Positions 2,733-43,500 of a stretch of 64,000 nt of DNA are shown one piece after another. The stretch spans positions 1,152,459 to 1,216,458 of the forward strand of contig NW_005202427.1 of NCBI RefSeq assembly GCF_000372725.1, given 5' to 3'. Source of the DNA: Emiliania huxleyi CCMP1516 (lineage: Eukaryota). A model generated the notes under the pieces. The model was not told where the DNA came from. It searched no databases and saw only the letters and a list, made by a program, of their open reading frames with translations. The position numbers and the translations under genes are program-made. How positions within the stretch are numbered: the first letter of the stretch is position 1; every line of letters begins with the position of its first letter.

Positions 2733-5700
2733 ATGCACGCCATCACGGTCACGGCCCTGTTACCGTGGACCTCTTTCGCCGCTCCACGCTCCGCGCCGCG
2801 CTGCCGGCAGCTGGCCACTCTGCGCACCACACGGCCACTCTGCGGCCTGCGAGAGGCTGGCGACGAGGCGCACTCGTCCAAGAAGAGGCACATGGCGCTA
2901 ATGTTTGGCTTCCGCGGCACGGGCTTCTATGGCCTCCAGTCTCAGAGCGCTGAGGGCACGCCCGGCCAGCCGACCGTCTCTGACGCGCTGCGGCGGGCAC
3001 TCCTCGACGCGGGCGCGGTCCTGCCGAGCAACTTCTCTCCACTGACGCGAACAAAGTGGACGCTGGCGAGCCGGACCGACAAGGGCGTGCACGCGGCTCG
3101 CGCGGCCGTGTCGCTCAAGATGGAGACGCTCGACTCACAGCTCGAGCCGCTCCTCTCGCCGCTCCTGGACACTTCCGGGACGCTTCCTGGACAGTTCGAG
3201 CCGCTCCTCTCGCCGCTCGAGCCGGCGGAGCGGGCGGCGGGGCCGCCGCCGCAGCCGAGGCTCGCCCTCACCGCCGCCGCCGTCGCCGAGATCAACAGCC
3301 ACCTCCCGCCTGAGGTGCGTCTCTCCCGCTGTCTCTCGGCTGTCTCTCGGCTGTCTCTCGGCTGTCTCTCGGCTGTCTCTCGGCTGTCTCTCGGCTGTCT
3401 CTCGGCTGTCTCTCGGCTGTCTCTCGGCTGTCTCTCGGCTGTCTCTCTCGGCTGTATCTCGGACCTCGCCTCCCGAAGGTGCGGCTCTTCGGCGGCTGCA
3501 CGGTCCGCAAGTCGTTCCACTGCCGCGAGTGCGCCTCGAGCCGCAGCTACGAGTACCTGCTGCCGGCCTCTGCGCTTGGCGGGATGGGCGTGGCGGAGTT
3601 CGACGCCGTCCTCTCGACATTCGAAGGGAGCCACAAGGCGCGCCGCTTCTTCTGCTCGAGCAGCTGAGGCAGTCGAGTGGTCCCGCTCCCTCACTGACCG
3701 CCACTGACCGCCATGCCACACAAGGTGCACAACTTCTGCTCCGGCCTGCGCGGCAAGGGCTGGGGCTGCTGGGAGCACGACGGCGAGAGCTGGCCGCTCG
3801 CCCTCGACCCATCGCGGCGGCAGGGCGAGCCCCCAGACCACCCGAGATCTCTCCTCAGACCACCCGAGATCTCTCCTCAGACCACCCGAGATCTCTCCTC
3901 AGACCACCCGAGATCTCTCCACCACACCTCTCTCCACCACACCTCTCTCCACCACACCTCTCTCCACCACACCTCTCTCCACCACACCTCTCTCCACCAC
4001 ACCTCTCTCACAGATCCAAGCCCACCTCGCCGGCCAGGCGCCGCGTTCGCGTACCGCTCGGTCCTCTTCTGCGGCGTGCACCGCTCCGTCGTGCTGCGAG
4101 GGCAGGAGCACCTCGTCCTCCGCATCGCCGGCGTCTCCTTCATGCTGCACCAGATCCGGCGAGATGCAGCCGAGATGTAGCGGAGAGAGATGCTGCACCC
4201 GATCCGGCGAGATGCAGCCGAGATGTAGCGGAGAGAGATGCTGCACCCGATCCGGCGAGATGCAGCCGAGATGTAGCGGAGAGAGATGCTGCACCCGATC
4301 CAGCGAGATGCAGCCGAGGTGAGGCAAGGCACGGCGCAGCCTCCTCTCCTCTCCAGGCACATGATTGGCACGGCGCTAGGAACCTTCTAGGAACCCTCTA
4401 GGAACCCTCTAGGAACCCTCTAGGCACATGATTGGCACGGCGCTCGCCATCGCGCACGGACTGGTCCCACGGGACACTCTCGCCCTCGCGCTCCGCTCGC
4501 CGCTGCAGGACTGCCCTCCGACTCCAGCACCCCTCCGACTCCAGCCGCCCTCCGACTCCAGCACCCCTCCGACTCCAGCTGCCCTCCGACTCCAGCACCC
4601 CTCCGACTCCAGCACCCCTCCGACTCCAGCTGCCCTCCGACTCCAGCACCCCTCCGACTCCAGCACCCCTCCGACTCCAGCACCCCTCCGACTCCAGCAC
4701 CCCTCCGACTCCAGCACCCCTCCGACTCCAGCACCCCTCCGACTCCAGCTGCCCTCCGACTCCAGCACCCCTCCGACTCCAGCACCCCTCCGACTCCAGC
4801 ACCCCTCCGACTCCAGCACCCCTCCGACTCCAGCACCCCTCCGACTCCAGCACCCCTCTGACTCCAGCACCCCTCCGACTCCAGCACCCCTCCGACTCCA
4901 GCACCCCTCCGACTCCAGCACCCCTCCGACTCCAGCACCCCTCCGACTCCAGCACCCCTCCGACTCCAGCACCCCTCCGACTCCAGCACCCCTCCGACTC
5001 CAGCACCCCTCCGACTCCAGCACCCCTCTGACTCCAGCACCCCTCCGACTCCAGCCGCCCTCTGACTCCAGCACCCCTCCGACTCCAGCACCCCTCCGAC
5101 TCCAGCACCCCTCCGACTCCAGCACCCCTCCGGCTCCAGCACCCCTCCGACTCCAGCACCCCTCCGACTCCAGCACCCCTCCGACTCCTGAACTCAGAAG
5201 ACCCCACAGCCCCTGACCCTAGGCCCCTTGCCCGCCGCAGGTCGACATCTCTCCTCTCGCACCCGGCGCCGGCCTCCTCCTCGACGAGATCCGCTGGTTC
5301 GATCTCGGCAAGCGCGCCGAGGACCTCGCCTTCCCCCCCTCGGCGCACGCGGCGGCCGAAGCCTTCAAGGAGGGCACGTAGCTAGTAGTGGTTAGTAGTG
5401 GTTAGTAGTAGCTAATGAACGAGCAGCAAGTAAGTGGCTAATTAGAGGCCTTCAAGGAGGACCCTCCTCAAGGAGGGCCCTCCCCCCCTCCAGCCGCACG
5501 ACAGTGCGCCGCGAGCAGGTCACCAGCAGCCGGCCCCCCATCTCACCGGCAGGCGGGTGTGTCTCGTCGTAGGAGGCGTCCCTCTACCCGCACATCGCAG
5601 AGCGGCTCGCCTCAGAGGAGTCGCTCGAGCGTTTCCTCGGCCGGATGCGAGACTCGTTCGGAGGGGCGAAGCACTACTCCGCCGCCGACTACGCGCGGCT

Positions 5701-6272
5701 CAGGCGCGTCAACGCCGGGCTGGCCGAGGCGACACTTCCTGGACACTTCCTGGACACTTCCCTGCAGGCGCGTCAACGCCGGGCTGGCCGAGGCGACGAG
5801 CCGGCGCGGCGCAGGGCGAGCCGGCGGGCCGGGCGGCGAGGGCGGCGGCGAGGGCGGCGGCGAGGGCGGCGGCGAGGGCGGCGGCGAGGGCGGCGGCGAG
5901 GGCAGCGGCGAGGGGGCGGCGGTGGCGGCCGCCGCGCCGGCGGAGAGCGGGTGCGGCCCTGCGCCGGTGAGGGACGGGCGGAGGGGCGGGGCGGTGGTGG
6001 AGCGGAGGAGGGTTGGGCTTCCAGGCGGGCTGAGCGTCCAGATCTGCGTCCACTATGGCTTTGCGCCCGGCCCTCGCAGCAGCCAGATGCTCGAGGGGCT
6101 GCGCGAGCGCCTCGAGCGCGGGGAGGTGCTCGCGCGGCAGCCGTACGAGTACTACCTCGGCAAGCTCGAGGAGGTGCACGGGAAGCCGCCGCCGCGGCCG
6201 GCGGAGGCGATGGAGGAGGAGGGCCGCGGTGTCGCCGCGGGGTCGGTGAGTGAGGTGCGGGTTTGGTGCTGA
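2733..6272 (+). CDS. tRNA pseudouridine synthase, TruA/Pus1 family, multi-exon
   Basis: Motifs FGFRGTGFYGLQ, ASRTDKGVHAA (catalytic Asp), SRSYEYLLP, HNFCSG and GVSFMLHQIR/HMIG occur in order across frames, separated by repeat-filled introns. Confidence 0.88.
3328..3462 (+). repeat. Intronic 11-bp tandem repeat (GGCTGTCTCTC)n
   Basis: Directly visible tandem array inside a GT-AG intron. Confidence 0.95.
3832..4008 (+). repeat. Intronic tandem repeats (CAGACCACCCGAGATCTCTCCT)n and (CTCTCTCCACCACAC)n
   Basis: Visible tandem arrays. Confidence 0.9.
4142..4318 (+). repeat. About 47-bp tandem repeat x3-4 that begins with a copy of the exon end (ATGCTGCACC.GATCCGG)
   Basis: Visible repeated units. 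Confidence 0.85.
4514..5188 (+). repeat. Intronic 17-bp minisatellite (CCGACTCCAGCACCCCT)n
   Basis: About 40 near-identical units. Confidence 0.97.
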
Positions 6273-6574
6273 TTTCGGTTGGGTAACGAATTCCTCACAG
6301 ACGCACTCCACACAAGCACAACTTCTCTCACAAACACAATGAACCTACCAAGGCGGAGGCGCGCGTGTGGGGGAGACGCAGACGGGGCACGGCCCGTTGT
6401 GTTTTGTGGGCGCGCGACTCCAGTGAGGGAGGGTGAGACGATCGAGGGGTCCCGTACACGCGGAATCGACCCTATCCGCTCAAGTAGAGTGGTTGAAGGG
6501 GACGGCCGCGAAAGAAGATGCATTTTTCATCACAAGCGAAGGAGAACACAGGCGGGAGAAGGCAAGTGCACACG

Positions 6575-7792
6575 ATGCAGGCCGAGGCAAACCTCCGAGC
6601 GTCGCTGGCGGCGGGCACTCAGCACAGCGTCTTCATCGACGGCGAGGGCCGGCTCTTCTCGTACGGCAACGGACTTTATTTGGAGACCGATGAGATCGAG
6701 GTCGGCGAAGATCTCGAGTCCGAGGAGGCCCTGGCTGTCAATGGGCTGCTCGGTCACGGCGAGGGCGTGACGCGGCTCAACACGCCGACCCGCCTCCCGT
6801 CGATGGGAGGCGAGCGCGCCGTGAGCGTGTCGGCTGGAGCGGTCCACAGCCTCGCCATCGCCGCCGACGGCACCGTTTGGAGCTGGGGCTGTGCTTGCCG
6901 GCTGGGCCACGGCGACGACGAGAACCAGCTGCAGCCGAAGAAGATCGAGGCCTTCACCGGGCAGCGCGTCGTCACTGTCTCGGCGGGGTCGAATCACAGC
7001 CTCGCCATCACCGTCGACGGCGCTGTGTGGACCTGGGGCTTGGGCGGCCTCCCGCTGGGCACGTCCAACAACCTGCTGCCCAAGAAGATCGAGTCCATGG
7101 CGGGGCGGCGCGTGGTCGCTGTGTCGGCGGACCTCATGCACAGCCTCGCCATCACTACCGACGGCGGGGTGTGGAGCTGGGGCGAGGGATGGTCCGGCGT
7201 GCTGGGCCACGGTGACCGCGAGGACCAGCTGCTGCCCAAGAAGATTGAGGCCTTCGAGGGGGAGCGCGTCACCGCCGTGTCGGCGCAAAACAACCGAAGC
7301 GTCGCCGTCACCGCCGACGGCGCCGTCTGGTCGTGGGGCCTTAACCACGGCCGCGGCGTGCTGGGCCACGGCGACGAGCAGCGCCAGCTGCTGCCCAAGA
7401 AGATCGAGGGCCTGGCGGGCCAGCACGTCGTCGCTGTGTCGGCTGGAGCATTTCACAACCTCGCCCTCACCGCCGACGGCGCCGTCTGGAGCTGGGGCTG
7501 GGGAGACCACGGGGAGCTGGGCCACGGCGACGACAAGGACCAGCCGCCCAAGAAGGTCCAAGCCTTGGCGGGCCAGCGCGTCGTCGCCGTGTCGGCGGGA
7601 GGCGACCACAGCCTCGCCCGCACCGCTGACGGAGCCGTCTGGAGCTGGGGCTATGGAGGACACGGCCTGCTAGGCCACGGCGACGAGCAGAACCAGCTGC
7701 TGCCGAAGAAGATCGAGGGGTGGGTGGTGCGGCCGACCCCCAAGAAGAGGACGCGGGCCTCGGCGGCGTCTCCCAAGACGGCCGGGGTCTGA
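6575..7792 (+). CDS. RCC1-repeat beta-propeller protein (UVR8/HERC-like), single exon
   Basis: Repeated VSAG..HSLA.TADGAVWSWG.G..G.LGHGD...QLLPKKIE units. Confidence 0.93.
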   Translation: MQAEANLRASLAAGTQHSVFIDGEGRLFSYGNGLYLETDEIEVGEDLESEEALAVNGLLGHGEGVTRLNTPTRLPSMGGERAVSVSAGAVHSLAIAADGTVWSWGCACRLGHGDDENQLQPKKIEAFTGQRVVTVSAGSNHSLAITVDGAVWTWGLGGLPLGTSNNLLPKKIESMAGRRVVAVSADLMHSLAITTDGGVWSWGEGWSGVLGHGDREDQLLPKKIEAFEGERVTAVSAQNNRSVAVTADGAVWSWGLNHGRGVLGHGDEQRQLLPKKIEGLAGQHVVAVSAGAFHNLALTADGAVWSWGWGDHGELGHGDDKDQPPKKVQALAGQRVVAVSAGGDHSLARTADGAVWSWGYGGHGLLGHGDEQNQLLPKKIEGWVVRPTPKKRTRASAASPKTAGV

Positions 7793-9993
7793 GGACGAGG
7801 GCACGAGGTCGAGCACGCTCGTGCCTCTCGGTGGGAGACTGCTGCTGTGGCTCTGTGGAGCAGGACCTGGACGAGGATGGACCGGAGACACGCGTATCTA
7901 GGCGATTGTCATCTCCATCTCTTGGGGGCCGCGGAGTCGCGGCTAGCGTTCGCATGGGCTCGCTCTCCCTGATCGGTGATCGCCCGCCTGACACCGCGAC
8001 TCGGCACTCGCGCGCCCTGACCGCTGTGGCCCTGTGCCGGCATGTTTCTGTGCGCGGCCTCACGCTCGGTGACGGGGACGTACACGCGCGAGTCCCGTTC
8101 TCTCTCTCTTGGTGAAATACGTTTCTATGGTATACGCGCAGCCAATTCTCGGTCAGCCGTTCCAGGATGCAGGAAAAAATAGTTTCGGTGGTCTGAGGCG
8201 GCCCAGCGGACCCCAGCGGACCCGTTGGCACGGCCAGCGCGCGTGGGGCACCGGGGCGACCCCCCCGTCTCACTAGTGTCCTTCCTTTGGGTGTGAAAAC
8301 GCGACCTCGCCGTCAGACGAGCAGCGCACCGTTAGACGGAGGCGCGCGAGCGCTCGGAGGCCGCCCGACACGACTCACACATGCCTGCGTTGGGCCCGCG
8401 CAGCCGGAGTATTTTTCCGGTCCGATTTTCGGGGTGCTCTGTTCACGGCACGGAAAAAACAAGCAGGTGAGAGGCTCGTCCTCCGACTCTCACGCCTGCA
8501 AGCCGACTGGGGCACCGGAAAATTATTCCGAGCCGGCGGTCCTCGCGTCCGACTGTGTGAGTGACTCGTGAGCCACCCCGACACCGCTCGGACCGCCTCT
8601 CCGCGTCGGCGTCCATGCCGCCGGAGCAGTCGAAACGTGGGCGTCTGAGCGTCGCCTGTGTCATCTGCCGAGCTTCCAGGCGGGCCTGCGACGGCAAGTT
8701 TGCCGACTGCGCCAAGTACGTGCCGCTACCCGCGACCGCCTCCGACGCTACCGGCCCGTCTCAGCCCGCCTCGCCACCTTCGAGCCGGCCTGTTCGCTCC
8801 AAGACGAGCCCGGGCGGCTCGCAGCACCGCGGAGCTCCGGTTTCCCTCGCCGCCGAGCCGGCTTACGCGCCCGTGGAGGAGATGCGCGACAGGACCGACC
8901 AACGCTACGACCTCAAGCGGCGGCGGACGTCGGAAGAGGCGGTGGGAGAGCAGCGGCCTCCGCGGACTGGGCGGCCGATGCGGTCATCGAGGCGGATGGC
9001 AGGACGAGGAGCGGGAAGCTCGGCTTCGAGCAGGCGGACGGCCGCCTGATGGAGCTGCTCGTCCTCGCCTCCGCCTCCGCGTCGCCGGACGCGCCGCTGT
9101 CGCTGCAGCTGGAGAGGTGGCTGGCAGTCTGGGCCAAGCCGCCGTTGCGTGTGCGCTAGGAGCGGCACTGAAGCCGTACTGACACACAGTTCTCCTGCGT
9201 TTGCTCGCGCAGGTGGTGGCGAAGTTGCTGCAGCGGCCGGAGCTACTCACCCCTCCTCACCCCGGCCAGGACGACAAGACGGCCGACGGCGAGATACGTG
9301 GTTCGTCACACGGCGCGCGGCCGGGAGGCGAAGAACCCACACTCGAGAAGTACGAAGAACGTGCGGCCCGTTGGCCGTTGACGCTCGGTGCCAGTCGAGT
9401 GGGTCAAAACTTGCACGAGCTCAACGGCGAGTTTGCCATCTTCAAGGCTTTGCCGAGCGAGCAAGACCGCGTCGCCGCGACGCGCCTGCCTCCCCGTGCC
9501 AGAGCTCAAGTGGGAGAAGGAGGAGGGTGGCAGCCTCTCTTCCACCTCGCGTGCGGGCAGGTTTGAGGACGTCTGCAAGTAGATAGCATAGGCTCAGGCG
9601 CGCACATTACGTAGCGGGTACACCGCGCGCGCGTGATGGTATGTGTGCCCTGTGTCTCTTGTTTGTCTGGTCTGTGCCTGTCTGAGTGAGGTGGTCTCTC
9701 AGTGGCCTTTACCTAGAACAAGAAACCTACACAAACTAGGCGGATTGCATCACGTGGATCGATATAAGATTCATTATTTGGACGCATCCCAGAAGTGACG
9801 CGAAGGCCCACACGAATGCAGGCCAGAGTCTTACCTCTCCTGCAAGAACGCAGCGGTCTTGGAGCTTCCCCGTCACGTTCCTGCCGCATCTTATCCGTGG
9901 CGACGCGCTGTGCCATCGAGCCGTACTCGGCCGCGACGCGCGTCGAGGCACGCTGGACCGACCAAGCAGCGACGCCAAAGCGTCGACCGATAG

Positions 9994-11650: not shown

Positions 11651-12440
11651 GCGCACAACACCACAGGTCTCATCTCAGTCTAGCGACCTGCCTCCAGCTT
11701 CTCCACTGGCAGTCTCTCGCTACCACAGGCACACTGACAGGGGCGGCCGAGGCACACGCCGAGGGTGGCAGGGGCGGTGTGGCACCCTGAAGTTTTTTCT
11801 CTTCCGTTCCCGTTTGCGACAGGTTCCCCTCCGGGTTCCCCTCGGAGCTCGGTCAACCTCGCCGCCACGACTTGGTCAGTTGGTCTTAGCTACACACAAC
11901 ACCACAGGTTGTCCTCCAGCTTGTGCCCGCCCGCGGCGCGGCGAGCCTCTCTGCGCACCACTCCAGATACGGGCTCTCGCCCTGGCCGCGCGCCGCCCTT
12001 TTGCCTCGCGACACAGCGCACGTCAGCCGGAGCGCTCCGCCCGACGCCCGCGCTGACCTTGACCCTGTTCCCCCTGCCTCGCTCCGCAGGTGTGGGTCGA
12101 CGGCGCGGAGCAGCGGCCGCCCGCCCGCGTCCCCCGCCCCCGCCCGCCCGCCCCCGCCACGCCGCTGCATGCGCGCCGCCGCCCCGATGTCCCACACCCT
12201 CGCCGGCGACGCGCCGTCTCTGCGCGCCGCCGCCTCCTCCCCTCCACCCACACTGCGCCGCCTGCGCTTAGGCGCGTCGCTCGAGTGCCCTCACCGCCTG
12301 CCCCTCTCCGCTCGCAGGTGCGGCCACGGCCGGTCGAGCAGTCCCTCGCGCCGCGCCCCCATCCTGCCTCCGCCTCGCCACAACCACCCCGCTGCCCGAC
12401 CGCGCGCGCCCTCGCCCTCGTAGAGTCAACTCACGCGGTC

Positions 12441-13685
12441 ATGATGAAGCTCTACCTCGCGATCGTCGCGTCGCTCCTCACGCCCGTCCAGTCGGCCCCG
12501 ACCCGCCGCCAGTTGGGCATCTCAGGTGACACTTGCGATGTTACGGCGTGCGAGACGGCGTGCGCGGCGGTTGGCAATCCGTATGGCCCGTACGCTGGTC
12601 GCGGATCGATGGAGACTTGTGTCCATGGCGACTCCGCGTACGGGCCACAAGTCGGATGCAAGGGCTGTGCTTACGTCGATGATGGCCCCTCCACCCCGCC
12701 CGCCCCCTCCACCCCCCCGCCTTCGCCGCCCGCCCCCCCCTCCACCCCTTCGCCACCTTCGATGCCGCCCTCCCCGTCCCCTCCGCCTTCTCCGCCGCCG
12801 TCCCCCGGCGCCCCCATTGGTGGCGGCGGCGGCGGCGGTGGCGACGATCCCTGCTTCTCCCGCGGCACGTACGCGTGCCGCCTCCTCGACCCCAAGGCGC
12901 GCTCCCTAGGCGGCGAGTCGGACTAGCGAGGCGCCCATTCACACCCGTGCCCCCCCCCCCCCCGGCCCCAGGCCCCCGCCGCCGAGGCGTACGCCCAGTG
13001 CTTCCTCGGTGCCGCCGGCGACGCGGCGACGCGCGCCCCCATGTCCGAGCTCGCCGCGGGCGACACCGTGCTCTCCGACGCGGACACCGCCGCGCGCGTC
13101 GTCGTCAACCAGCACAAGGTCGAGGACGGCAAGGCCTCGCTCCTCATCACGCTCACGCACGCGCGCGGCTCGCTCGCGCTCACGCCCGACCACGTGCTCG
13201 AGCTCGACGGCAAGTTCATGCCTGCGCGCGAGGCGCACGTCGGCGCGGCCCTCTCCAACGGCGCGGTCATCGAGGCCATCTCGCACTCGCGCGGCGGCAT
13301 CATCAACCCCATCACCGTCACCGGCAAGATCCTCGCGGCGGCCGCCACCGGCGAGCCCGTGCTCGCGGCGACGGGCAACGAGTGGCTCGCCGACGTGATG
13401 CTCTCGGCCTACCCGAAGTACACCCTCTCGTACGCGCTCGCGGCCGCCTTCCCCGCCGCGGTGCAGGCCTACTACGACGGCGCGCTCGAGCCGCTCTTCA
13501 CCGCGGCCGTCCCGCACCTCACCAAGATCAAGGCCGCCGCGCCGGCGCCGCTCGTCGGCGTCATTCTCGTGGCGGGCGACGCGGCGCTCGCCACCGGCTT
13601 CGCCGCCTACTCGCTCGGCCTCAAGGGCGTCGCCACTCTCGCCGTGATCGCCGTGGCGGCCGCGCGCAAGGGCAAGAAGCCGTGA
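12441..13685 (+). CDS. Secreted/membrane protein with Hedgehog-type Hint autoprocessing domain; intron 12897-12971 (GC-AG)
   Basis: Signal peptide MMKLYLAIVASLL, Cys-rich module, Pro/Gly linker, then DDP|CFS, MSELAAGDTVLS, LTPDHVL, INPITVTGKILA and a hydrophobic C-tail. Confidence 0.82.
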
Positions 13686-13749
13686 GGCGCGCGCGGCCTG
13701 GCCGTCGGAGGTTTGTACAGCCGCTGGGCGGCGCAATAGTTGCCTCCAC

Positions 13750-13958
13750 GTATCGGAGAGAGGAGAAGGGAGGTGCAAGGGGCGTGCTCTCGTTCTGGTA
13801 GTCCGCCTGCCTCCAGCATGTCGTATCGGAGAGAGGAGAGGAGAGGTGCAAGGGGCGTGCGCTCGTTCTGGTAGTCCGCCTGCCTCCAGCATGTCGGATC
13901 GGTCGGAGAGGAGAGGGGTGCAAGGGGCGTGCTCGTTCTGGTAGTCCGCCTGCCTCTG
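13750..13958 (+). repeat. About 60-bp tandem repeat x3 in 3' region (second copy about 16475-16682)
   Basis: GGTGCAAGGGGCGTGCTCGTTCTGGTAGTCCGCCTGCCTC repeated. Confidence 0.9.
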
Positions 13959-14288
13959 AGCCTGACGGCGCGATCTGGTCGTTTTGTACATCGTATGTAA
14001 ATGGTGAGTGCCACCTGCCACTGAGCACACGTTGTATTGTGTAAAGAGATAGTTCAGAAACGAGATATAGAGTTCTGAGTTGTAGCAACAGCCGGCAGGG
14101 GCGGTCACTTGGAGCACTTGGAGAGTGCAGTCGGCAACCACCAACCTCACATCCAGGGCCGGGGAGCTTGAGGAGCGCACCCAGCGAGCCGGATGATCGG
14201 CATCGGGCTACGGGCAGGAAAGCCCTGACCCCTAGGGGGGGGTGCGCGTTCGCAGGGCAAGGGCCTTAAAGTAAACATGGGTCTCCGA

Positions 14289-14487
14289 AATAAATAAATA
14301 AATAAAATGGGCACGCCAAACGAGGGGTGGGAGAGGGACAGGGTCCCCACCTGCACGAGCAGGATCTTGGAAGGACGATCAGGGACACAGGGGAACGGGA
14401 GCGGGGAGCGCATCGCGACACGGAGGGGGGCTGGGCAGGGTTCACCCACACGACAGGGTCCCAGGGATTCCTCTCTCGTATAGGACA
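14289..14487 (-). mobile_element. Short retroposon-like insertion with (TTTA)n tail and 10-bp TSD GGGTCTCCGA
   Basis: TSD copies at 14279-14288 and 14488-14497. The paralogous site 16988-16997 is empty. Confidence 0.8.
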
Positions 14488-15168
14488 GGGTCTCCGAGGG
14501 TTGGCTCCGCGCGGGGCGTCACATTTTTCTTCAGGTTCCCGTTTGCGACATGTTCCCCTCGCTCGAGCTCGGTCAACTTCGCCGGGCATCGCCTACACCA
14601 CTTGGTCTCTACCACAACGCCACAGGTCCAGCTTGTGCCCGCCCCGCCCGCGGCGCGGCGAGCCTCTCTGCGCACCACTCCAGATACGGGCTCTCGCCCT
14701 GGCCGCGCGCCGCCCTTTTGCCTCGCGAGACAGCGCACGTCAGCCGGAGAGCGCTCCGCCCGACGCCCGCGCTGACCTTGACCCTGCTGCTCCTGCCTCT
14801 GCTCCGCAGGTGTGGGTCGACGGCGCGGAGCAGCGGCCGCCCGCCCGCGTCCCCCGCCCCCGCCCGCCCGCCCCCGCCACGCCGCTGCATGCGCGCCGCC
14901 GCCCCGATGTCCCACACCCTCGCCGGCGGCGCGCCATCTCTGCGCGCCGCCGCCTCCTCCCCTCCACCCACACTGCGCCGCCTGCGCTTGGGCGCGTCGC
15001 TCGAGTGCCCTCACCGCCTGCCCCCCTCCGCTCGCAGGTGCGGCCACGGCCGGTCGAGCAGTCCCTCGCGCCGCGCCCCCTCATCCTGCCTCGCCAGCCA
15101 CCACGCCGCCGTGCGACCACACCCTACCACCGCTTGCGCCCCCCGTTCGCAGGTCAGTGAACGCGGTC

Positions 15169-16355
15169 ATGATGATGCTTACCTCCGCGATCCTCGCGCT
15201 CGCCGCCTCTGCCGCCGGCCAGGAGAAGCCCGGCCACGAGCTCCTCTTTGCCGACATTCCGGCGGACGTGTGCTGGAGCCAGACCGACTGCGAGCCCGCG
15301 GTGAAGGTCTTCAAGGACGGCACCGTGATGTTGGGACTCTACCACTTCTTCTGGGGAGGTACGACCCATGCATTGATGGGCATGTACAACAAGGCTGTGG
15401 CCGGATCGACCCACACGGCGATGGGCATGTGGAACACGGTTATGGCCGGATCGACCCATACGGCGATGGGCATGTGGAACACGGTTATGGGCGGAATGGC
15501 CCATACGGTGATGGGCTGGAACAACACGATTATGGGCGGGACGGCCGCGACCGTGATGGGTTACAAAACGGTCGCCACTGGAGGTATGGCCCAGACCGCG
15601 ATGGGTTACGAGACGAATGCGATTGGCATGGCTTCTTTGTCGACGGGTTACAAGACGGCGGCGTTTGACATGGCGGTTTCGATGGGAAACGGCACGTTGG
15701 CAAAGGGCATTTCCTCGGTGCCCCCCCCCCCCCCCCCCCGCCCCAAACCTGGGGCCCCACACCTCACCCCCTGCCCGCCTTTTTGCCCGCTGCAGGTCTC
15801 GATGGGCCCCAAGACCCAAGCAGAAAGTTTTGCGGAGGTTCCCCCCCCCCCCCCCCCCCACCCCCCTTCAAGCAGCGTGGCCTGCACAGCTGCCCTAACC
15901 TCCCCTCCCCTCCCCTCTCAATGAAGGTAGTGATCGGTCAGTTCAACGAGCGCAATCCCATCGGCGAATGCGACCAGTTTGGACCCGGCAAACCCTACCC
16001 GGGCCCGGCGCCCGAGGGTTGCGCCTCGAGGGGCTGGCCCGAGCGCCTCGAGGGTTTCGAGATGGACATCAACGGCACGATGGTCACGGTGCCCGCGGCG
16101 TGGCAAGGCTACGATGCGGTCTTCCGCGTGGGTGTCGGCACCGGCGAATCCGACCGCAAGGACGCGATCACTGTGTACAAGAACGGCACCGTCGTCATCG
16201 GTGACCTCCGCACCCCCGGCCCTGGCCGCCGCCTCTCCGCCTCCGACGGCGCGCTCGAGAAGAAGCTCGAGGCGACGGAGAAGAAGCTCGAGGCGACGGA
16301 GAAGAAGCTCGCCGCGCTGGAGGCGGCAGTCATGGCGCTCACGCGCAACCCGTGA
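15169..16355 (+). CDS. Secreted protein with YadA-head/Hep-Hag-like repeats and C-terminal coiled coil; introns 15718-15795 and 15838-15926
   Basis: Signal peptide, 14-aa repeats (T.MG..NT..GG, AMGYETNAIG, SMGNGTLAKG), VIGQFN, VFRVGVGT.ESDRKDAITVYKNG, (LEATEKK)n. Confidence 0.75.
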
Positions 16356-17442
16356 GAGCGCTGGCCTGGACGTGATCGCCGTGGCGGCCGCGCGCAAGGG
16401 CAAGAAGCCGTGAGGCGCGCGCGGCCTGGCCGTCGGAGGTCTGTAGCCGCTGGCAATAGTTGCCATGTGTATGGGAGAGAGGAGAGGAGAGGTGCAAGGG
16501 GCGTGCTCTCGTTCTGGTAGTCCGCCTGCCTCCAGCATGTCGTATCGGAGAGAGGAGAGGAGAGGTCAGAGGTGCAAGGGGCGTGCGCTCGTTCTGGTAG
16601 TCCGCCTGCCTCCAGCATGTCGGATCGGTCGGAGAGGAGAGGGGTGCAAGGGGCGTGCTCGTTCTGGTAGTCCGCCTGCCTCTGAGCCTGACGGCGCGAT
16701 CTGGTCGTTTTGTACATCGTATGTAAATGGTGAGTGCCACTGAGCACAGCCTGTATTGTGTAAAGAGATAGTTCAGATACGAGATATAGAGTTCTGAGTT
16801 GTAGCAACAGCCGGCAGGGGCGGTCACTTGGAGCACTTGGAGTGCAGTCGGCAACCTCACATCCGGGGCCGGGGAGCTGAGGAGCGCACCCAGCGAGCCG
16901 GATGATCGGCATCGGGCTACGGGCAGGAAAGCCCTGACCCCTAGGGGGGGGTGCGCGTTCGCAGGGCAAGGGCCTTAAAGTAAACATGGGTCTCCGAGGG
17001 TTGGCTCCGCGCGGGGCGTCACATTTTTCTTCAGGTTCCCGTTTGCGACATGTTCCCCTCGCTCGAGCTCGGTCAACTTCGCCGGGCATCGCCTACACCA
17101 CTTGGTCTCTACCACAACGCCACAGGTCCAGCTTGTGCCCGAGATAGAGTTGTAGCAACACAAAAACATAGAGATAAGAGAACGCCAGCAACCCTATGAT
17201 TCATCATTCAACCCAAACAAGGGATGGGAAGGAGGACAGGGCCTCACAGAGGATTACGCCACAGTGTCGTTTGAGTCGACAGTAAATCTCCCACAGCCCA
17301 CGTAAATCCGTCTTTTTCAGACACCCGGAGCCCTCCGCGGCCGCTTCTACGCCGGCGAAGCACCATCAAGCTGCTGTACGGCCCCGGCATCGCCTCCCCT
17401 GGCTTAGCTCTCAGTCAAGATATTGTGCACATGGGTGGCCTC

Positions 17443-20086
17443 CGTCCGGCCGTGCCCCGCGGGGGCGCGGTCGGCACCAGAAGGGGGTTGATACGTTCTC
17501 TAGAGACGACGTAGTCGTGGACGGCCGCAATCACAATGGACGGACACGACGAGACGAGTGTGAAAGCACGGAGGCAACAAAACACACTAGGGTTCGGGAG
17601 AAGGCTAGGGTTAGGGAGAGAGTGCCTGACGGGCTTCGGCCCGACGTCCCCCCCCTCGACTTAGTCGAGTAACGACATAGTCGAGTAACCGTGCACTCTC
17701 GGATCACGATGCGTTAGGGAACGTGATGTTCATGACCGGAGATTTGATGTTCATGATCTTGTCACGAAGCTCGAAGAACCGTTTGGGCTTGAGCGGCTTC
17801 GTGAAGAAGTCGGCGAGGTTGGCGTCGCTACGCACGAAGGGGACGCAGAGGCGGTGCGCCTCGATGGCCTCGCGGATGTAGAAGTGGCGTCGCTCGACGT
17901 GCTTGAGCTTGCCATGGTGCTCCGGGTTGTAGGCGGAGGCGATGGCGGCCTGGTTGTCGACGTAAAGCTTCGTCGGCGGGCGCGGGGAGCCATCGGGGAG
18001 CGCGTCGACCTCCTCCTGCAGACGCCGGTACTGCTCGACGTCCTTGGTCGCCTCCGAGGCGGACATGATCTCGGCCTGGCAGGAAGAGAGGGAGACGGTG
18101 GGTTGCTGTTGAACCCTCCAGTCAAGCGTGGCGCCCCACAGGCGGACGAGCCAGCCAGACGTGGATCGACGGGCCGACCAGTCGGCGTCGCTGAAGGCGT
18201 GGAGCTCGTCGTCGGCGGCCGACTCGCCCCGACCGTTGTAGGTAAGACCAAGGTCAGGGTACTCGCGGAGGTAGCACAGGACGCAGTACACCTCCTCGAA
18301 CAGAGCGGGTGTGGGCTTCGCCATGGCCCGGCAGAGGAGGCCGACGGGGAGCGCGATGTCGGGGCGCGTGTTCGAGACGAGGTAGAGAAGAGCCCCGAGG
18401 CAGCTCTGGAAGAGGCGGACGACGCGCAGCTCCCTCTCGCTGGTGTCGTCGGTGGCCGCTTGAACTCGCTCTGCGATGCTGAGGGTGAACGGCGTGTTGT
18501 TGGAGTGACGGGCGCCGGGCTCGGCGGGGTTCGGGAGCTCGGCGATGATCTGGTCGAGGTACTCGTCGAGGAGCTTGCGCACGTACGGCCCCTGCCCGAC
18601 GTGAACACCGCCCTCGGCGAGTGGGGTGACCTGGACGTTGAGGATGTCGGAGAGCGGGCCCTCGTCCTCAGATTTCCACGAGGCGTCGATGTCGCGAACG
18701 AACTGCGCGTAGAGCGAGTCGGAGACAAGAGCCCCCTCGGCGTCGTACTCGGCGTCGCGCTTGTAGAAGATGATGAGATCGTCGACGTAGACTCCGATGA
18801 TGAGCTCGTCGTCCTCAGTGGTGATGCGGTAGATGCAGGGGTCCTCCTTGGACGGGATGAGGCCGGCGCCTCCTTCGTCGCGGGGACGCTCGAGCCAAGC
18901 AAAGAAAGCGCGCTGGAAGCGCCGCCCCGCCTGCTTCATGCCGTAGAGGGGCTTGAGGATGAGGCAGAGCTTGGGCTTGCCGTTCTCGTCGAGAGCGTTG
19001 GCGTGGCCGGCGGGCTGATGCATGAAGGCGATCTCGCCGTCCTCGAGAACTCCCTGGAGGAAGGCGGCGACAAGGTCGCGCCTACGAGCCTTGAGCCCGC
19101 GGCGGGCAGCAATGTTGAGAAGGAGGCGAAGGGAGGGCATGCGCAGGGTGGAGCAGAACGTCTGGTTGTAGTTCTCGCCGAACCTCTGGCTGGACCCGTC
19201 GAGACAGCAGCGGGCTTTGTGTTTGCCATTTCGCTTGGTCTTGTAGACCCAAGTGGCACGAGTGGTAGTGAACTCTTTGCCGTGCTGCAGGGCGATTCGT
19301 CGGGCCTCGGCGTAGGTGACGTAGCACCATGTGGAGCCGGCCTCGACGCACTCCTCCATGGTGCACTGGCCACGGATGAAGCGCTCGACAAAGCGGGGAT
19401 CGTCTGCTTTCCCGCTATGGTTGCCAAGCTCCTCGAGCTCGGCGGTGAACCAGGCTGCGTCGCCTCGTTGCGCGTCCTGTCGCATGGCTTGCCCGTGGCC
19501 GGATGGATCGCGCGGTCCGGCAGAGGTACGTGCAGCCAAGATGTGGAGCCCGGGTCGGGGGTGGCCAAATTTCACGATGGCACCAGAGGCAGGTGTGAGG
19601 CCTCTGTCGAGGGCGGCGTTGACAGGAAAGTCACTGTCGGAGCAATGTCTGAGCCTCCCGGGAGTACTCGAGGCATCGCCGACAGAGGGGTCGGGGGTGG
19701 AGCCGGCACGGCGTCCGACGACCCCGTGGTGCTCTGGCTTCTTCAGAAGCGGCTTTTGCGATGACTGCGACATCTTTGGCGGGGACCTCTCCGAGGCTCC
19801 CCGCCATCGATTCGCCGGCCATATCTGGGATAGCGTGAAGGGACTCCCCCAAAGTGCTGGTCGTGACCAGTTGACGCTGCCACGTCCGGCCGTGCCCCGC
19901 GGGGGCGCGGTCGGCACCAGAAGGGGGTTGATACGTTCTCTAGAGACGACGTAGTCGTGGACGGCCGCAATCACAATGGACGGACACGACGAGACGAGTG
20001 TGAAAGCACGGAGGCAACAAAACACACTAGGGTTCGGGAGAAGGCTAGGGTTAGGGAGAGAGTGCCTGACGGGCTTCGGCCCGACG
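17443..20086 (-). mobile_element. Ty1/copia LTR retrotransposon, internally deleted, 2644 bp
   Basis: Identical 204-bp LTRs (17443-17646, 19883-20086), 5-bp TSD GCCTC (17438-17442, 20087-20091), TGG-initiated PBS-like site after the 5' LTR, GAGGGGGGG PPT before the 3' LTR. Confidence 0.95.
17704..19773 (-). CDS. Copia reverse transcriptase-RNase H ORF
   Basis: KAR, DL..AFLQG, LYGMKQAGR, YVDDL, FSDADW, RRSTSG, SSCQAE, YVDNQAAI, KHVERRHFYIRE, NLADFFTKPL. Start approximate (MSQSSQ). Confidence 0.93.
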   Translation of the reverse strand: MSQSSQKPLLKKPEHHGVVGRRAGSTPDPSVGDASSTPGRLRHCSDSDFPVNAALDRGLTPASGAIVKFGHPRPGLHILAARTSAGPRDPSGHGQAMRQDAQRGDAAWFTAELEELGNHSGKADDPRFVERFIRGQCTMEECVEAGSTWCYVTYAEARRIALQHGKEFTTTRATWVYKTKRNGKHKARCCLDGSSQRFGENYNQTFCSTLRMPSLRLLLNIAARRGLKARRRDLVAAFLQGVLEDGEIAFMHQPAGHANALDENGKPKLCLILKPLYGMKQAGRRFQRAFFAWLERPRDEGGAGLIPSKEDPCIYRITTEDDELIIGVYVDDLIIFYKRDAEYDAEGALVSDSLYAQFVRDIDASWKSEDEGPLSDILNVQVTPLAEGGVHVGQGPYVRKLLDEYLDQIIAELPNPAEPGARHSNNTPFTLSIAERVQAATDDTSERELRVVRLFQSCLGALLYLVSNTRPDIALPVGLLCRAMAKPTPALFEEVYCVLCYLREYPDLGLTYNGRGESAADDELHAFSDADWSARRSTSGWLVRLWGATLDWRVQQQPTVSLSSCQAEIMSASEATKDVEQYRRLQEEVDALPDGSPRPPTKLYVDNQAAIASAYNPEHHGKLKHVERRHFYIREAIEAHRLCVPFVRSDANLADFFTKPLKPKRFFELRDKIMNIKSPVMNITFPNAS

Positions 20087-20091
20087 GCCTC

Positions 20092-20898
20092 TACAATATA
20101 CTCACTGACACTGAACCTCCCAGAGCTCGTCCCGGTCCGTCACGGCCATCCTCGTCCTCCGGCGGGCCCCCGGCCGCGGCGCGGTGCGGCGGCGTCACAA
20201 ATCCGACCACAGAGCACCGGGACGCGGTCGGGCGATCTGAGGCCCAAGTAGGCGAATGCATAGCCCATCCAGGGCTATCACCTGGACCTATCAACAGGCG
20301 CCTGCGGCGCCGTGCTCAGGAGTTGGTTTTCACTCGCTCGAATGTGTGCCACCATGTTTGTCAAGCGCCTCTTCATGCTCCGCCACGTCGCGCCGTACCT
20401 CGTCGGCACTGCTTAAATGATCGCCGACGTCTTCACCAAGACGCAGGCGACGCGAGCTATGTTCTTCACCTGTCGCGACTACATGCTCAACGCCAGCAAC
20501 GGCCCCGGCTTTGCTGTGACGCTCCAGGGGCAGGCTGCCCGGCTGTGGAGCAAGCTCGTCGCGACCGTCGGCAAGGCGTGAGTCATCACCCCTTCGCCGA
20601 AGACGCGCGAGTCGTCCGAGATAGTTGCCGATGCAACTAGGGGGGAGCGTTAGAGACGACTCTCTCTCTCCCAACTGTGAACAGTCGTTATCTGTATATG
20701 CGCAGCTATTCATAGCCGCGCCTGTTGTTTGTGTGTGTATCCGCGCTCTTGGCGCGATTACGAGACTGAGTAGTGTGTCGCACTAGTTGTACTTTTCGTA
20801 ATAGTATTCCGCATTCATTGCGAGGGCGGACCACTCCTAGCGTGCAGACCGCGGGAGCTGGTGCCGCGGCCAGTGTAGACCTGTCCTGCGCTGTGACG
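20092..20898 (+). mobile_element. Degenerate older copia remnant (RNase H end, PPT, probable LTR)
   Basis: ...VAPYLVGTA*MIADVFTK at about 20385-20440; AGGGGGGAG at 20639-20647 followed by CGTTA...TGACG. Confidence 0.6.
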
Positions 20899-37060: not shown

Positions 37061-37497
37061 GGGCCCTCGCCTCCCCCCAGAGCGCAGAGGAGGGGAGGAC
37101 TGCTGACGCGTGACGGGGGTTGCATTTTGGGTTTTGCCCGTCAGAGATACACATACAGCATACACGATACAGACAGGAGGAGGAGCGCCGGCCTCAAGCT
37201 CAACGCGGGGTCTCGGCTCTGTCGAGCTCCATGCAGCATGCTAGCTCCAGCCGCAGCCGCCCCACCCGGCCGCCCGAGGGTGTGTTCCCGCAGGCAGAGA
37301 AGAGACTAATCCTGGGGGAAGCAACCTGCTGAAAAAAGTAATACCTGGGCGCTGCCACACAGATGCGCGCCCCACACCAGGACTGCGGGCTAAGCGCGGG
37401 CAAGGTTAATGCCAGGGGCGGATATATGCATTTCGCGGGGCTCTCCCCGTGCCGTCTAAGCGACTCGCGCGGTCCCCAACCTCGGCCCCGGCGCCTG

Positions 37498-39710
37498 CTA
37501 CTCGTCCGGCTCGTGTGGCCCCACAGCGCAGCCAGGGACCGCGAGGAAGTCGTCAAAGTCCCACCTGCGGCGCCGCCCCGAGAGAGGGTCCGAGCGCGGG
37601 CGCGGCGGCGGCCTGGCGGGCGGGGCGCGCGCTTTTTGACGCCGCAGCACTGCCACTGCTTGGACCCCTCGTGGAAGAGCGGCGGCTTGAGGTGGTACCT
37701 GTGGAGAGGGGGGGGGCGGGGGGCGCGCGAGATGGGGACGGGTTTAGCGCGTGCGCCGTAGCAGTCGTTGCGGGGCGGGGCGGGGGCGTGCCTGCAAGCC
37801 GTGCTGTGGTTCTCTGCCACGGAGTACTCTGCGTTGCACCCGGGGTGCCTGCGCGGCGCGGGGGCAGCCTCCCGGGTCAGGCGGGCGGCGCCTCCCGCCA
37901 AGGCAGAGGCGAAAAGGCACCGGCAGCGTGCGCGGCCCTCGGGCAGCGGCGGCCGCTTCCTGTGGGGGCGAGGCGTCGGCGGCGGTGAGGCCGTGGCGCC
38001 GCGGCGGGGGAGAGAGCGCCGCGCCGGCGCTGCCTCGGCGGCGGCGCGGCGGGCGGCGCGGCGGCGGCGCCGTGGTCTGGCGGGGGAGCGTTGCCGGCCG
38101 CGTCGGGCTTGGGGGCCTGGTAGAACTTCTTCGCGCCTGTGGAGGGGACAGAGGGTGGGGGGGCGTTGAAAGGAGGCCTCCGGAGCGCGGTCGGCGGCGG
38201 AGGATTGGCGCGGGTGCAGGTACCCTCGAGGTGGGCTGCGTGCACGCGCGCTGTAGCCTGGCGCGGGGAGGTGCGTGGCACGTGTCAGCTGGCTGCGGCT
38301 AGCGGGGGGGGGGGGGNNNNNNNNNNNNNNNNNNNNNNNNNNNNNNNNNNNNNNNNNNNNNNNNNNNNNNNNNNNNNNNNNNNNNNNNNNNNNNNNNNNN
38401 NNNNNNNNNNNNNNNNNNNNNNNNNNNNNNNNNNNNNNNNNNNNNNNNNNNNNNNNNNNNNNNNNNNNNNNNNNNNNNNNNNNNNNNNGAGGGGCGCCTT
38501 GATGTAGGGGCAGCAGGTCCACCACTAGCGCGTGTCGTGGAACATGGGAAGGAGGCGGTGGTGTCGGCAGGCGTCCTGGCGGTGGGGGGCGAGGATGGGG
38601 CGTCGGGACGGCGCTTTGAGAGGGAGGGAGAGGGGGAGGCAGAGGGAGGGAGAAGGAGAGGGAGGCAGAGGGAGGGAGAAGGAGAGGGAGGGAGAGAGAG
38701 AGGGAGAGAGGGAGAGGGAGAGGGAGAGAGAGCGAGCGAGCGAGAGAGAGAGCGAGAGAGCGAGCGAGCGAACGAGGGGGAAGAGGCTCCAGGTAGGCGC
38801 GGGGAGGCGTGTGCTGGGGAGGCGTGGTGCTGGGGAGGCGTCTGCACGGCTGGCTCCTCATGGTTGGTTCCAGGGTCGTACTCGACCTGGCAGCCGTACC
38901 TGCGGGGCCAGGCTTGGGTGGGTCAGGGCTCGGCCAGGCTGGGTGCCGCCGCCTCGCCGTCCGCCGCACCGCTCGGCCGCACGATCTCGGCTGATCTCAG
39001 CTGATCTCGGGCTGATCTCGGCTGATCTCGGACTGATCTCGGCTGCATCTCGGGCTGATCTCGGGCTGATCTCGGCTGCATCTCGGGCTGATCTCGGCTG
39101 CATCTCGGGCTGATCTCGGGCTGATCTCGCACCGCTTGCAGCGCGGCCTGGCCGAGGCGCTGGCCCCGGGCGCCGCCGCCGCGCTGTGCGGGACGAGCCG
39201 CACCTCGCACCGGTCGGAGAGGGCCTGCCGACAGTGGCCCGCCGGAGAGGGCGTGAGGCGACCGCTCTAACGCCGCGAGCCGGACGGGGCTGGGAGGCGT
39301 CTCGGAGGCGCCTTGGCAGGGACGTCGACCGTGCGCAGCGTGCGCACGTCCGAGTGCGTGAAGGGCGAGTCGTCCCGCACCTACGAGGGCGCGATCGACG
39401 CGTCTGGCGGCCGGACGGCGGCGGGATGCGCGCGTGCGGTCGGGGACTTGGAGCGCAAAGCTGTCTCCGTCGAGCGGTGCGTCGGCAAACTTTTTGTTGT
39501 ACGCAGCGACGAAGGCGGCCTTGACCTGCGTCGGCCGGCGCGGCGCAGGCTGAGTGCGGCCTGGCCGGAGGCTCGCCGCGAGTGGCGGCCGGGGCGAGAG
39601 GCCGCCTTGTCGACAGAGAGCTCGAGCCACTTTGCGGGCAGCGTGATGGCGAGCTTGTGGTGCGCCGAGGCGGGCGCGCTGGCGTGGTCGTAGATGACAA
39701 AGATCTTCAT
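37498..39710 (-). CDS. Protein with ubiquitin-like N-terminus and two CHORD zinc-binding domains, multi-exon
   Basis: RCKR/YGCQVEYD..TNH, ACRHH...PMFHD...WWTCC, HPGCNAEYSVAENHSTACRYH..PPLFHEGSKQWQCC...WDFDDFLAVPGCAVGPH. Spans an N-gap. Confidence 0.8.
38985..39129. repeat. Intronic (GCTGATCTCGG)n repeat
   Basis: Visible 11-12-bp units. Confidence 0.9.
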
Positions 39711-40023: not shown

Positions 40024-40105
40024 TGTCGAGGACGGGGTTCGAACCCGCGCCCATTTCTGGAACGGCGCCTAAAGCCGCCGCCTTAGACCACTCGGCCACC
40101 TCGAC
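40024..40105 (-). tRNA. trnL-UAG: tRNA-Leu, anticodon UAG
   Basis: GTCGAGG acceptor stem pairs with CCTCGAC+A; D-loop TGGCCGAGTGGTCTAAGG; anticodon loop TT-TAG-GC; long variable arm; GGTTCGAACCC; T4 run downstream. Confidence 0.96.
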
Positions 40106-40217
40106 TTTCGGGTTCGAACCCGGGCCCAACCTCACCCCGAACGGGTGAGTGCTCATGCAGGGCTTGTTGCAAAACGTACGCGATCGGACCAATTGCTTAT
40201 AAAGCTCTGGAAAAACG

Positions 40218-40538
<321 letters not shown>

Positions 40539-40572
40539 AATAAAGAAAAAAACACTCCTGCAGCGGCGGTCC

Positions 40573-43500
40573 ATGGGGCCCCCCTTTCACGATGGTGGCG
40601 CAGACTCTGGCCACGTCACCAGCATCAAGGAAGGGTTTGGCTTCATCCGACCCCTCAACGACCGGCGGACGGGCGGCGGAGGTCTCTTCTTCCACTTCAG
40701 CGCTCTCGTCGGCCGTGACGTCCCAGTCGAGGGCGACGAGGTCTCCTTCTCGGTCGAGCTCGACCGCCGCTCAGGGCGCGAGGCAGCCAAGGCGGTGACC
40801 ATCTTGCCGCGCGGGACGCTGCCTGCGCCCGCGAGGGCCGTCACCGTCCGCGCCGTCGTGCAGAGAGAGTTGCGCGGCGCTCGTGGCGGTGACGGCTACG
40901 GCGGCCGTCTCGCCGTCCTCAAGGGCGACGGGCCTCCCGCCGAGGGTGACGCCGCTGCTGGGGATGGCGGCCAGGACGATGACGAGCAGACAGAGGTGGT
41001 GTCCTTTGACGCCCGCGGCTGCGAGAGGCCCAGCGCTCTCCACGTCGGCGATCTGGTCGAGTGCCGCTTGATGAGCGTGGCGGGCTCGCGCCAGCGCGCG
41101 GCGTCGCGCGTGAAGCTCATCGAGGCAGGCGGCGGGCTGCCGCGCCAGAGCGGGCGGGTGGCCTCGCTCAAGGACAAGTTCGGCTTCCTCCGCACGGCCG
41201 GCAAGGCTGCCGACCTCTTCTTCCACCTGTCCGAGGCGCCGCGCGACACTTCTCTAGACACTTCCTAGACACTTCCTAGACACTTCTTCCACCTGTCCGA
41301 GGCGCCGCGCGAGGGCGGCCCGCGCCGCGTGGGGGGCGACACTTCCTAGACACTTCGCGGACACTTCCCTGTAGGCGCCGCGCGAGGGCGGCCCGCTCCG
41401 CGTGGGGGACGACGTGTCCTTCTGCGTCGTGCTCGACCCGCGCTCGCGCAAGGACGCGGCGACGAAGCTGCGCCGGCTGCCCGCCGGCTCCGTCGCGCTC
41501 GAGCAGCTCGGAGAGGCTCGGCTGCGCGGCGTGGTGACGCGCTGCCTCGCCGGCAGCGCGAGCCTGCACCGGCTGCTCTCGCGCGCGGAGAAGGGGGCGC
41601 ACGGGGGGATGATCCGGCTCGAGGGCGGGGCGGCCGGGCGCGGGGAGGGCGCGGCCGAGGAGGCTGCGGCCGAGGATGCTGCGGCCGAGGAGGGCGCCGC
41701 CGAGGGAGGGGCGGGGAAGCTCAGCTTTGGGCTGGACGACGTCTGCGGCGAGTCGCGCGCGGCGGGCCTGTACGAGGGTGACGAGGTGAGCTTCAGAGAG
41801 GCGACCGACGCCGCCACGGGCGCGGTGGGCGCTGCCGACGTGCGGCTCGAGGCGCAGAAGGTGAACCGCGGCTTCGTGCTCTCGCTGCGCGACGGGCACG
41901 GCCTGCTGCGCGGCGAGGCGGGCGGCGCCCCGCTGAGCTTCGCCGCGTCGTCGCTGCCTGGGGTGAGGCCGCGCGACGAGGTGTGGAGCACTAGTACCGG
42001 CGGTAGGAGGCACCCTGAATTAATTGAGTACTTATTCATGAATGACTGCGCGACGAGGTGGAGTACCGGCGGGCGAGCGACGCAAAGACGGGCAGGCCGG
42101 CGGCCGCACAGCTCCGGAGGCTGCCTGCAGGCTCCCTCCTCCCAGCCAATGAATTAATTACTACCCGCACAGCTCAGCTCCGGCGGCTGCCTGCAGGCTC
42201 CCTCGTCCTCGAGTGGGTCTCTCCGCGCTGGTGGGAGGCCGTCGTCCGGCTCGCGCCCGCGGCGCCGCGCGGGCGCGGAGGCGGCGCCAGAGACGGCGCG
42301 GCGCAGAGCTGCGGCGCCGGCTCGGTCGAGCTCCTCGGGCCGCTGCCGCTTGCCGCTAGCGCTGCCGCCGCACCGCTTGCGCGTGCCGCCGGCGGGTCGC
42401 ACGAGCCCGCGCAGCGGTCCGAGTCGGACAAGCCCATCAACAATTAACTAATTGATTGATTAATTTAGGTCCGACTCGGACAAGCCCATCCCCCTCGAGC
42501 TCGGCCAGGCGCTCGCCCCGCCGCTCTCGCCACGCGCCGGCGAGGAAGTCGGCGCGGGCCTGGCGACCCCTTCGGCCGAGGCGCGCGCGGCGCTCGAGCG
42601 AGTCGATAGCGTGGCTGGCATGGCGGGCACCGTCCTGCCGCTGCCTCAAGCCGACGCAAAGTCGCGCGAGCAGCTGGTGCCGGGCGACATCGTCTCGCTG
42701 CTGCTGGCGGTCAGCGCGCGCGACGGCTCCGTGCGGCCCACGCGGGCGACGTACGAGCGGTGCGCGGACGGCGCGGTGGAGCGCGGCGTCGTCGTCAACG
42801 TGAAGGAGCAGTTTGGCTTCCTCAAGGCGGAGGCGCGCGCCTCGCCCGTCTTCTTCCACTTCTCGCAGCTGCCCGACGGGGTGCACCGGCTGGCAGCTGG
42901 TGCAGAGTTCGAGTTCGTCGTGACCGCCGAGGACGCGGCCGGCCGGAGGAAGGGCCGCAGCGTGGCCATCCGGCTGCGTTCGCTCGCTCCGGGCACCGTC
43001 GCCTTTGAGGATTGTCTCCTCGAGGAGGCGAAGGGGACTGTCGTCGCGGGGGCCGAGGCGGGGGGCGAGGCGGGGGGCGAGGCGGGGGCCGGGGCGGGGG
43101 GCGAGGCGGGGGCCGAGGCGGGGGCCGAGGCGGGGGCCGAGGCGGGGGGCGAGGCGGGGGGCGAGGCCGACTGCAGCCGCGAGACGATCGGCGACGACGC
43201 AGACGGAGAGGACGCCGCGAAGATCTCGGTGCTGCTGCTCGATAAGTTCGAGGGCGAGCGACTCAGGCTTCCGATCGACCGTCGGCGGCAGGAGCAGGCG
43301 CTGCGTGGCGCCGTGCCCGCTCTCGGCACGACCGTCACGTCGCGGCTCTGCCGCCGCCGGCGTGACGGCGCGCTCGTCCTGGTCGACTCGACACCGGTGC
43401 CGATCCGCGGCGTGGTCAAGGCCGTCTCAGGGGGCCAGGGCAGCATCCGCGCTACGGACGCGCTGCCCCAAGCTGCCGTCGATGCTGCCGCCGCCGCACG

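Follow-up and report, generated by a model that had tools for sequence, protein, structure and literature searches.

The window analysed here is the whole stretch of 64,000 nucleotides from Emiliania huxleyi CCMP1516 (contig NW_005202427.1 of assembly GCF_000372725.1, positions 1,152,459 to 1,216,458), and it carries on its minus strand, at 17443-20086, a Ty1/copia deletion derivative whose long terminal repeats (LTRs) have the ends CG...CG. On that strand the order is LTR, the primer-binding-site (PBS)-like sequence TGGCAGC, leader, an open frame for reverse transcriptase (RT) and RNase H, the polypurine tract (PPT) GAGGGGGGGGA, and a second LTR. The 5' LTR (19883-20086, 204 bp) directly adjoins the PBS-like site (19876-19882), which is followed by the 5' leader and first gag codons (19736-19875), a segment that runs on into a gag-like frame in two related loci, L011 and L004 (related loci are designated by L numbers throughout). 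At 19735 lies an internal-deletion junction, where the sequence matches switch loci, contigs diverge and about 8.4 kb is gone. The remaining open frame (17704-19734) has no stop or frameshift and comprises a pol linker, a copia-type RT with a YVDD motif and RNase H, whose motifs were also found; its RVT_2 domain (about 18571-19266) is recognized at E=1.2e-25. The PPT (17647-17657) adjoins the 3' LTR (17443-17646, 204 bp), which reads 5'-CGTCGGGCCG...CGGCCGGACG-3', and 5-bp target-site duplications (TSDs) of GCCTC flank the element on the left (17438-17442, from the sequence and an empty-site joint) and on the right (20087-20091, from the sequence). The window element thus has the direct LTRs, PBS, PPT and TSD of 4-6 bp that characterize Ty1/copia elements.

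The two LTRs agree in 204/204 bases, the first base outside differs on both sides, and the LTR ends on the minus strand form a terminal inverted repeat of 9/10. From the window alone, a 6-bp TSD, GGCCTC, with an LTR that starts G... is equally allowed, because the LTR end base G is the same as the base before the left TSD. This ambiguity, together with a CA just inside the called end in some relatives, is what favors a boundary error or a post-insertion mutation of an ordinary TG...CA element, an explanation we consider extremely improbable. The empty site appears as a joint 17436->20086 in three of four runs, with six shared letters. When contigs of four runs were aligned to the LTR alone, four differing outside flanks (first bases G, C, T, T), seen among 19 of the 26 loose-end rows, all retained G at 17646, one unitig stopped exactly at 17646, and unitigs from two runs started exactly at 17443, which rules out the 6-bp TSD; at the other LTR end, four differing flanks follow ...ACG (window, L001, L009/L010, L013). 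Eight distinct flanks of the window family therefore break at the same CG, the two LTRs are identical, neither CA nor TG lies near either end of the window LTR, and the trait is common to 17 families. A boundary error or later mutation is refuted for the window family by the breakpoints of other copies, and the CG...CG ends are real. The sequence-only reading of this stretch had the TSD, the coordinates, the ends and the inverted repeat right; the ends of the other family copies seen are all CG at the same boundaries, none being the canonical TG...CA.

Several features of the insertion site were also recorded. A host repeat of very high depth surrounds the element (17250-17442 and 20087-20300), with a contig depth in run X1 of ~10,000 as against 30-45 within the element, depth not being equivalent to copy number. 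The insertion point lies between the inverted motifs TCAGT..ATATTGT and ACAATAT..ACTGA. Outward positions 7-8 read AC in 6/8 flanks of the main LTR type, a small sample (window 17430-17442 and 20087-20100, L001:10126-10139, L009:1975-1988, L013 and loose ends), and a target preference of the family for a GT-N7-AC palindrome is possible. In run X2, numerous short, unrelated contigs are drawn to a telomere-like TAGGGTT/TAGGGTTAGGG stretch within the LTR (17587-17617).

The deletion derivative and its autonomous partner

Matches to the element fall into two parts: its nt 1-351 correspond to the LTR and leader of L002, L004, L011, L012 and L013, while nt 353-2644 correspond to L001:7833-10125 at 98.6% nucleotide identity. 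No microhomology was seen at the junction between them at 19735. The window copy is without most of gag and all of the protease, integrase, SH3 and methyltransferase-fold domains, so that the complete gag and pol of an autonomous element are interrupted at this junction. L004, a 92% relative, overlaps the beginning of L001, and this overlap puts the autonomous element at ~11.0 kb and the missing part at ~8.4 kb.

In L001 itself, a long gag-like frame is accompanied by a pol frame (4146-9863) that includes a protease-like motif, a DDE integrase whose D-D-E triad is intact, SH3, an extra domain, RT and RNase H; the integrase lies upstream of RT, as in Ty1/copia. The sequence-only reading had anticipated an autonomous partner, which L001 provides, and its description of a young copia element is borne out by the identical LTRs, the RVT_2 match and the empty site in other data; that the window copy itself lacks an integrase was no part of it. 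The window copy is a recently inserted, non-autonomous, internally deleted element; the integrase of its autonomous partner likely carried out the insertion.

A second type of integrase-less derivative (L002:1250-6670 and L003) has a frame of 1567 aa whose N-terminal part is unrelated, a methyltransferase-domain remnant, an RT 94% identical to that of the window, and an LTR with a different interior. No relatives were found among viral contigs. RNA runs X10-X15 contain 0.21-0.69 of the words, which we take as no claim of expression.

CG ends across the clade

Related loci were defined as the best 80 of 391 confirmed metagenome matches, fetched with an RT-RNase H alignment, and an LTR start was called only where TG or CG follows the PPT (L048 was assigned by hand). 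A G-run PPT after RNase H, followed by a callable start, was present in 72/80 loci, of which 38 start with CG and 34 with TG; of the eight loci left uncalled, four stop short of this point, a PPT was not clear within range in three, and L050 has ATTGAG. When 77 loci were clustered at 80% RT identity, with L011-L013 left out as too short, 34 families resulted: 17 CG, 15 TG, 2 uncalled and none mixed, so that 17/32 callable families start with CG. These CG families diverge down to 37% RT identity. Read by eye, the 3' end in the 17 CG-start families is CG in 13, unclear in one (L051) and uncalled in three; in the 15 TG-start families it is CA in seven, CG in three and unclear in five. TG...CA, TG...CG and CG...CG families sit within the same clade.

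Flank comparison fixed the CG 3' end in the window family, L006, L061/L078, the L014 family, L025/L028 and L043, and the CG start in L065. Across the 80 loci, the triplet preceding strict PBS-motif matches is ACG 19 times, with the runner-up triplet at five. The LTR of L002 has an unrelated interior and the same CG ends, suggesting that the ends are under selection. The datasets with matches are marine, and the sole named in-clade protein is P0225 of Chrysochromulina tobinii. The CG starts of 17/32 callable families support CG ends as a trait of the whole lineage rather than of one odd copy, in agreement with the lineage that the sequence-only reading had proposed.

The first PBS base was seen to track the LTR end: CA-ended elements mostly read CA|CGG (or CGA) and CG-ended ones CG|TGG, with L046 and L049 as exceptions (compared were L024, L030, L032-L037, L042, L044, L047, L048, L058 and L064 against CG-ended loci and window 19876-19886). 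At a CGG site, a mismatch to the terminal A of the tRNA primer is expected. In the TG...CG element at L022:200-240, TTTTTTACAAG takes the place of a TGG PBS after the 5' LTR.

Integrase residue, extra domain and end type

From retroviruses to Ty1, a CA terminus is regarded as close to invariant, and integrases normally require it. Both an integrase residue and an LTR start could be read in 31 loci, with four further loci lacking a start call. Six positions ahead of the catalytic Glu, the residue is D/N in 16/16 CG-start loci and Q/E/A/S in 15/15 TG-start loci; within the latter, it is Q/E in 9/9 TG...CA loci and S/A in 3/3 TG...CG loci. D/N at this position occurs in 0/46 outgroup copia proteins with a readable motif, versus 26/61 in-clade proteins; C. 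tobinii P0225 carries D. The integrase profile 'phdhdLNgvAE' aligns gap-free to 'PYHPQSSGKVE' of prototype foamy virus (PFV), which places the residue in register with PFV Gln215, and the L001 integrase carries D at this equivalent. A PDB search with a single integrase sequence returned nothing significant; the profile search did match, its best solved structure being 7z0h_W (E=1e-20), which we take to be the Ty1 integrase. PFV Gln215 corresponds to Gln151 of Rous sarcoma virus (RSV) and Gln146 of HIV; in RSV, this Gln is stacked against the G that faces the penultimate C of the CA end (PMC7955051). The PFV segment Pro214-Gly218 parts the two strands at the DNA end (PMC6784120; PMC3395085).

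On the RT tree, residue and end type each change three times, on the same branches. The integrase tree built without the trait columns has two changes, and in it L051/L055 (CG, D) fall inside the TG families with support of 99/97; the approximately unbiased test rejects a single CG clade (p=2.5e-5).

We read these data as a marine Ty1/copia family with CG...CG LTRs, whose partner integrase is predicted to accept CG ends through Asp in place of Gln at the DNA-end position, and we give this reading a probability of roughly 0.6. Reverse transcription primed at the PBS and PPT would yield blunt cDNA with CG-3'OH at both ends, because both sites adjoin the LTRs, much like the blunt CA of Ty1. In Ty1, the cDNA is blunt with CA, integration is lost when CA is changed to AC, and the integrase depends on the terminal dinucleotide (PMC2939329). 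The penultimate C:G pair would be retained, with only the terminal A:T replaced by G:C, and the partner integrase would join these CG ends with a 5-bp stagger. Asp or Asn in the end-opening loop (PFV Pro214-Gly218) may hold or melt the terminal G:C pair, and small residues at the Gln215-equivalent may accept both end types. A broader version is more tentative, and we would put it somewhat below even odds: the PFV Gln215/HIV Gln146-equivalent might set the terminal dinucleotide (Gln/Glu for CA, Asp/Asn for CG, Ser/Ala for both), such that a large, active marine algal copia clade would have switched more than once, broken the invariant CA at both ends and escaped motif-filtered annotation.

A number of points weigh against this interpretation. 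For the ends, many relatives' 3' termini rest on PBS adjacency in collapsed contigs; L052/L057/L070/L080 have a CA 2 nt upstream, which permits a 'CA plus spacer' reading there; and L026, L029, L039, L050 and L051 have neither CA nor CG adjoining the PBS. For the residue, the RT tree has no more than 3 changes and the integrase tree no more than 2, and 2 independent pairs on starred branches give a sign test of p=0.5, a number at which significance is out of reach. CG and TG starts are also separated by 4/305 integrase columns, 2/469 RT-RNase H columns and 7/240 methyltransferase-domain columns, the last in 20 rows with fewer contrasts. Finally, the RSV Gln contacts the penultimate pair, which is unchanged here, in an inhibitor-bound structure (PMC7955051). 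Since just two to three independent changes are available, we infer the residue as the cause of the end type rather than observe it. The earlier suggestion of altered integrase specificity is supported by a co-varying residue at the DNA-end position, and causation is a prediction from those few changes.

A rival account has an integrase that is simply tolerant of the terminal base throughout the clade, with CG held in place by RNase H primer cleavage, PBS RNA structure or host CpG biology and D/N hitch-hiking or compensating. In its favor, TG...CG families must integrate one CA and one CG end, the first PBS base tracks the LTR end as well, the groups differ in two RT-RNase H columns too, and several families have unclear 3' ends. 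However, CG persists, with LTR interiors changing, between families as little as 37% identical in RT, and the cleanest integrase column is the known DNA-end position, with a convergent change in L051/L055; we judge tolerance an unlikely account. Loss of the HHCC zinc-binding residues of the integrase N-terminus, seen in the window family and its sister clades (L001:5484-5720 region, L005, L015), was ruled out as the end-type determinant, as TG-start L044/L046 are also without CxxC.

Clade-wide, an extra domain of about 255 residues lies between SH3 and RT (L001:6630-7421). Its model has a pLDDT (predicted local distance difference test) of 82.7, and C5 DNA methyltransferases were the top match in both fold searches (Foldseek E=1e-4; VIA Z 10.3, root-mean-square deviation 3.9, 194 aligned), at TM-scores of only about 0.3-0.4. 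Pfam and PDB-sequence searches did not detect it, and in the alignment the L001 domain has the residues of motifs I, IV (Cys) and VI (Glu). The predicted structure thus matches a C5 cytosine-methyltransferase fold. Methyl-CpG can mimic TpG, and the domain might methylate the terminal CpG so that 5-methyl-C imitates the T of a canonical end, as its place in the partner with Cys and Glu motifs, the first fold match of its model and the domain columns that follow CG starts would allow. Nevertheless, the domain is also present, its PPC motif intact, in TG...CA families, the CG end persists in the TG...CG family L014/L022/L023 even though the catalytic Cys and Glu are gone there, and methyltransferase activity is itself only predicted; we regard this mimicry as improbable, and the domain as an unlikely determinant of end type. 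The proteins P0254-P0276, of about 900-1900 aa and mostly without Pfam hits, have the same methyltransferase-like domain, one of them (P0273, Prorocentrum cordatum) with a weak tyrosine-recombinase match, which suggests that other mobile elements share it.

The clade offers a natural series of TG...CA, TG...CG and CG...CG ends with a matching series of residues, in which the question of end choice becomes testable by a single substitution. The reason for terminal CA conservation is poorly understood, according to the LTR_retriever authors (10.1101/137141). Because about half of the sampled families would fail TGCA or T-first filters, the LTR content of marine algal genomes is likely under-annotated, and the clade also bears a methyltransferase-fold domain that is invisible to Pfam.

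Surrounding window and known systems

Outside the element, the window contains 1002 N and host-gene regions at 55904-62762, 49319-51049, 285-2537, 40087-44050 and 37200-38996, in which we found 1,3-beta-glucan synthase pieces, ankyrin repeats, an FGE-sulfatase domain, cold-shock domains and CHORD. Local duplications occupy 11796-17141: 11796-12474 / 14524-15203 (87%), 13643-14288 / 16371-16997 (93%) and 14488-14641 / 16988-17141 (100%).

Gypsy elements with AG starts exist. Among described LTR end types, TGTT and AACA subfamilies are named in PMC5659011, and the latter gives a non-T first base a precedent. LTR_retriever looks for TGCA first and then for seven motifs, all T-initial (10.1101/137141), and it follows from this stated procedure that finders filtered for TG..CA would miss the window element, as the sequence-only reading had expected. 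The available parts of PMC9998398, PMC5963040 and PMC13148404 make no mention of LTR ends. We found no description of CG-ended LTR elements or of algal copia with a DNA methyltransferase (DNMT) domain in a search that lay outside Repbase, Dfam, closed journals and the motif table of 10.1101/137141, and the CG...CG end type is apparently undescribed.

Compared with Ty1/copia (Pseudoviridae), the family shares the RVT_2 RT, the protease-integrase-RT-RNase H order of the partner, the PBS, the PPT and the 5-bp TSD. It differs in its CG...CG ends, in a partner integrase with D at the Gln215-equivalent and without HHCC, and in the added methyltransferase-fold domain and ~11 kb length of the autonomous element. 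Plant copia elements with non-TGCA ends (Tos17 TG..GA, AtRE1 TA..TA, TARE1 TA..CA, lotus TGCT) likewise show several end types per clade and short LTRs, with means of 272 and 316 bp against 204 bp here (10.1101/137141; PMC9804982). The first T is the sole constant base of the seven non-TGCA types (10.1101/137141), and the last base in plant surveys is A or T (PMC9804982), whereas the window LTR starts with C and ends with G and so falls outside the plant pattern; here, the ends also remain inverted repeats and come with a matching integrase residue.

The DNMT retrotransposons SymbioLINE-Dnmt, SymbioDIRS-Dnmt3 and KnitGypsy-Dnmt3 resemble the partner in that a domain of cytosine-methyltransferase type is embedded in their retroelement frame (PMC5890265). 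They belong to the LINE, DIRS and Gypsy groups and were found with Pfam PF00145, whereas here the domain belongs to copia, lies between SH3 and RT, has no Pfam hit, and has been lost by the window copy itself. Symbiodinium copia is said to be without a DNMT domain (PMC5890265), and copia with DNMT3 appears in one sentence of PMC12344493, citing PMC5890265. With the retroviral intasomes of PFV, RSV and HIV-1, finally, the partner integrase shares a DDE core and a loop before the catalytic Glu that align gap-free; unlike it, those intasomes act on CA ends that are invariant, and their residue at the Gln215 position is Gln.

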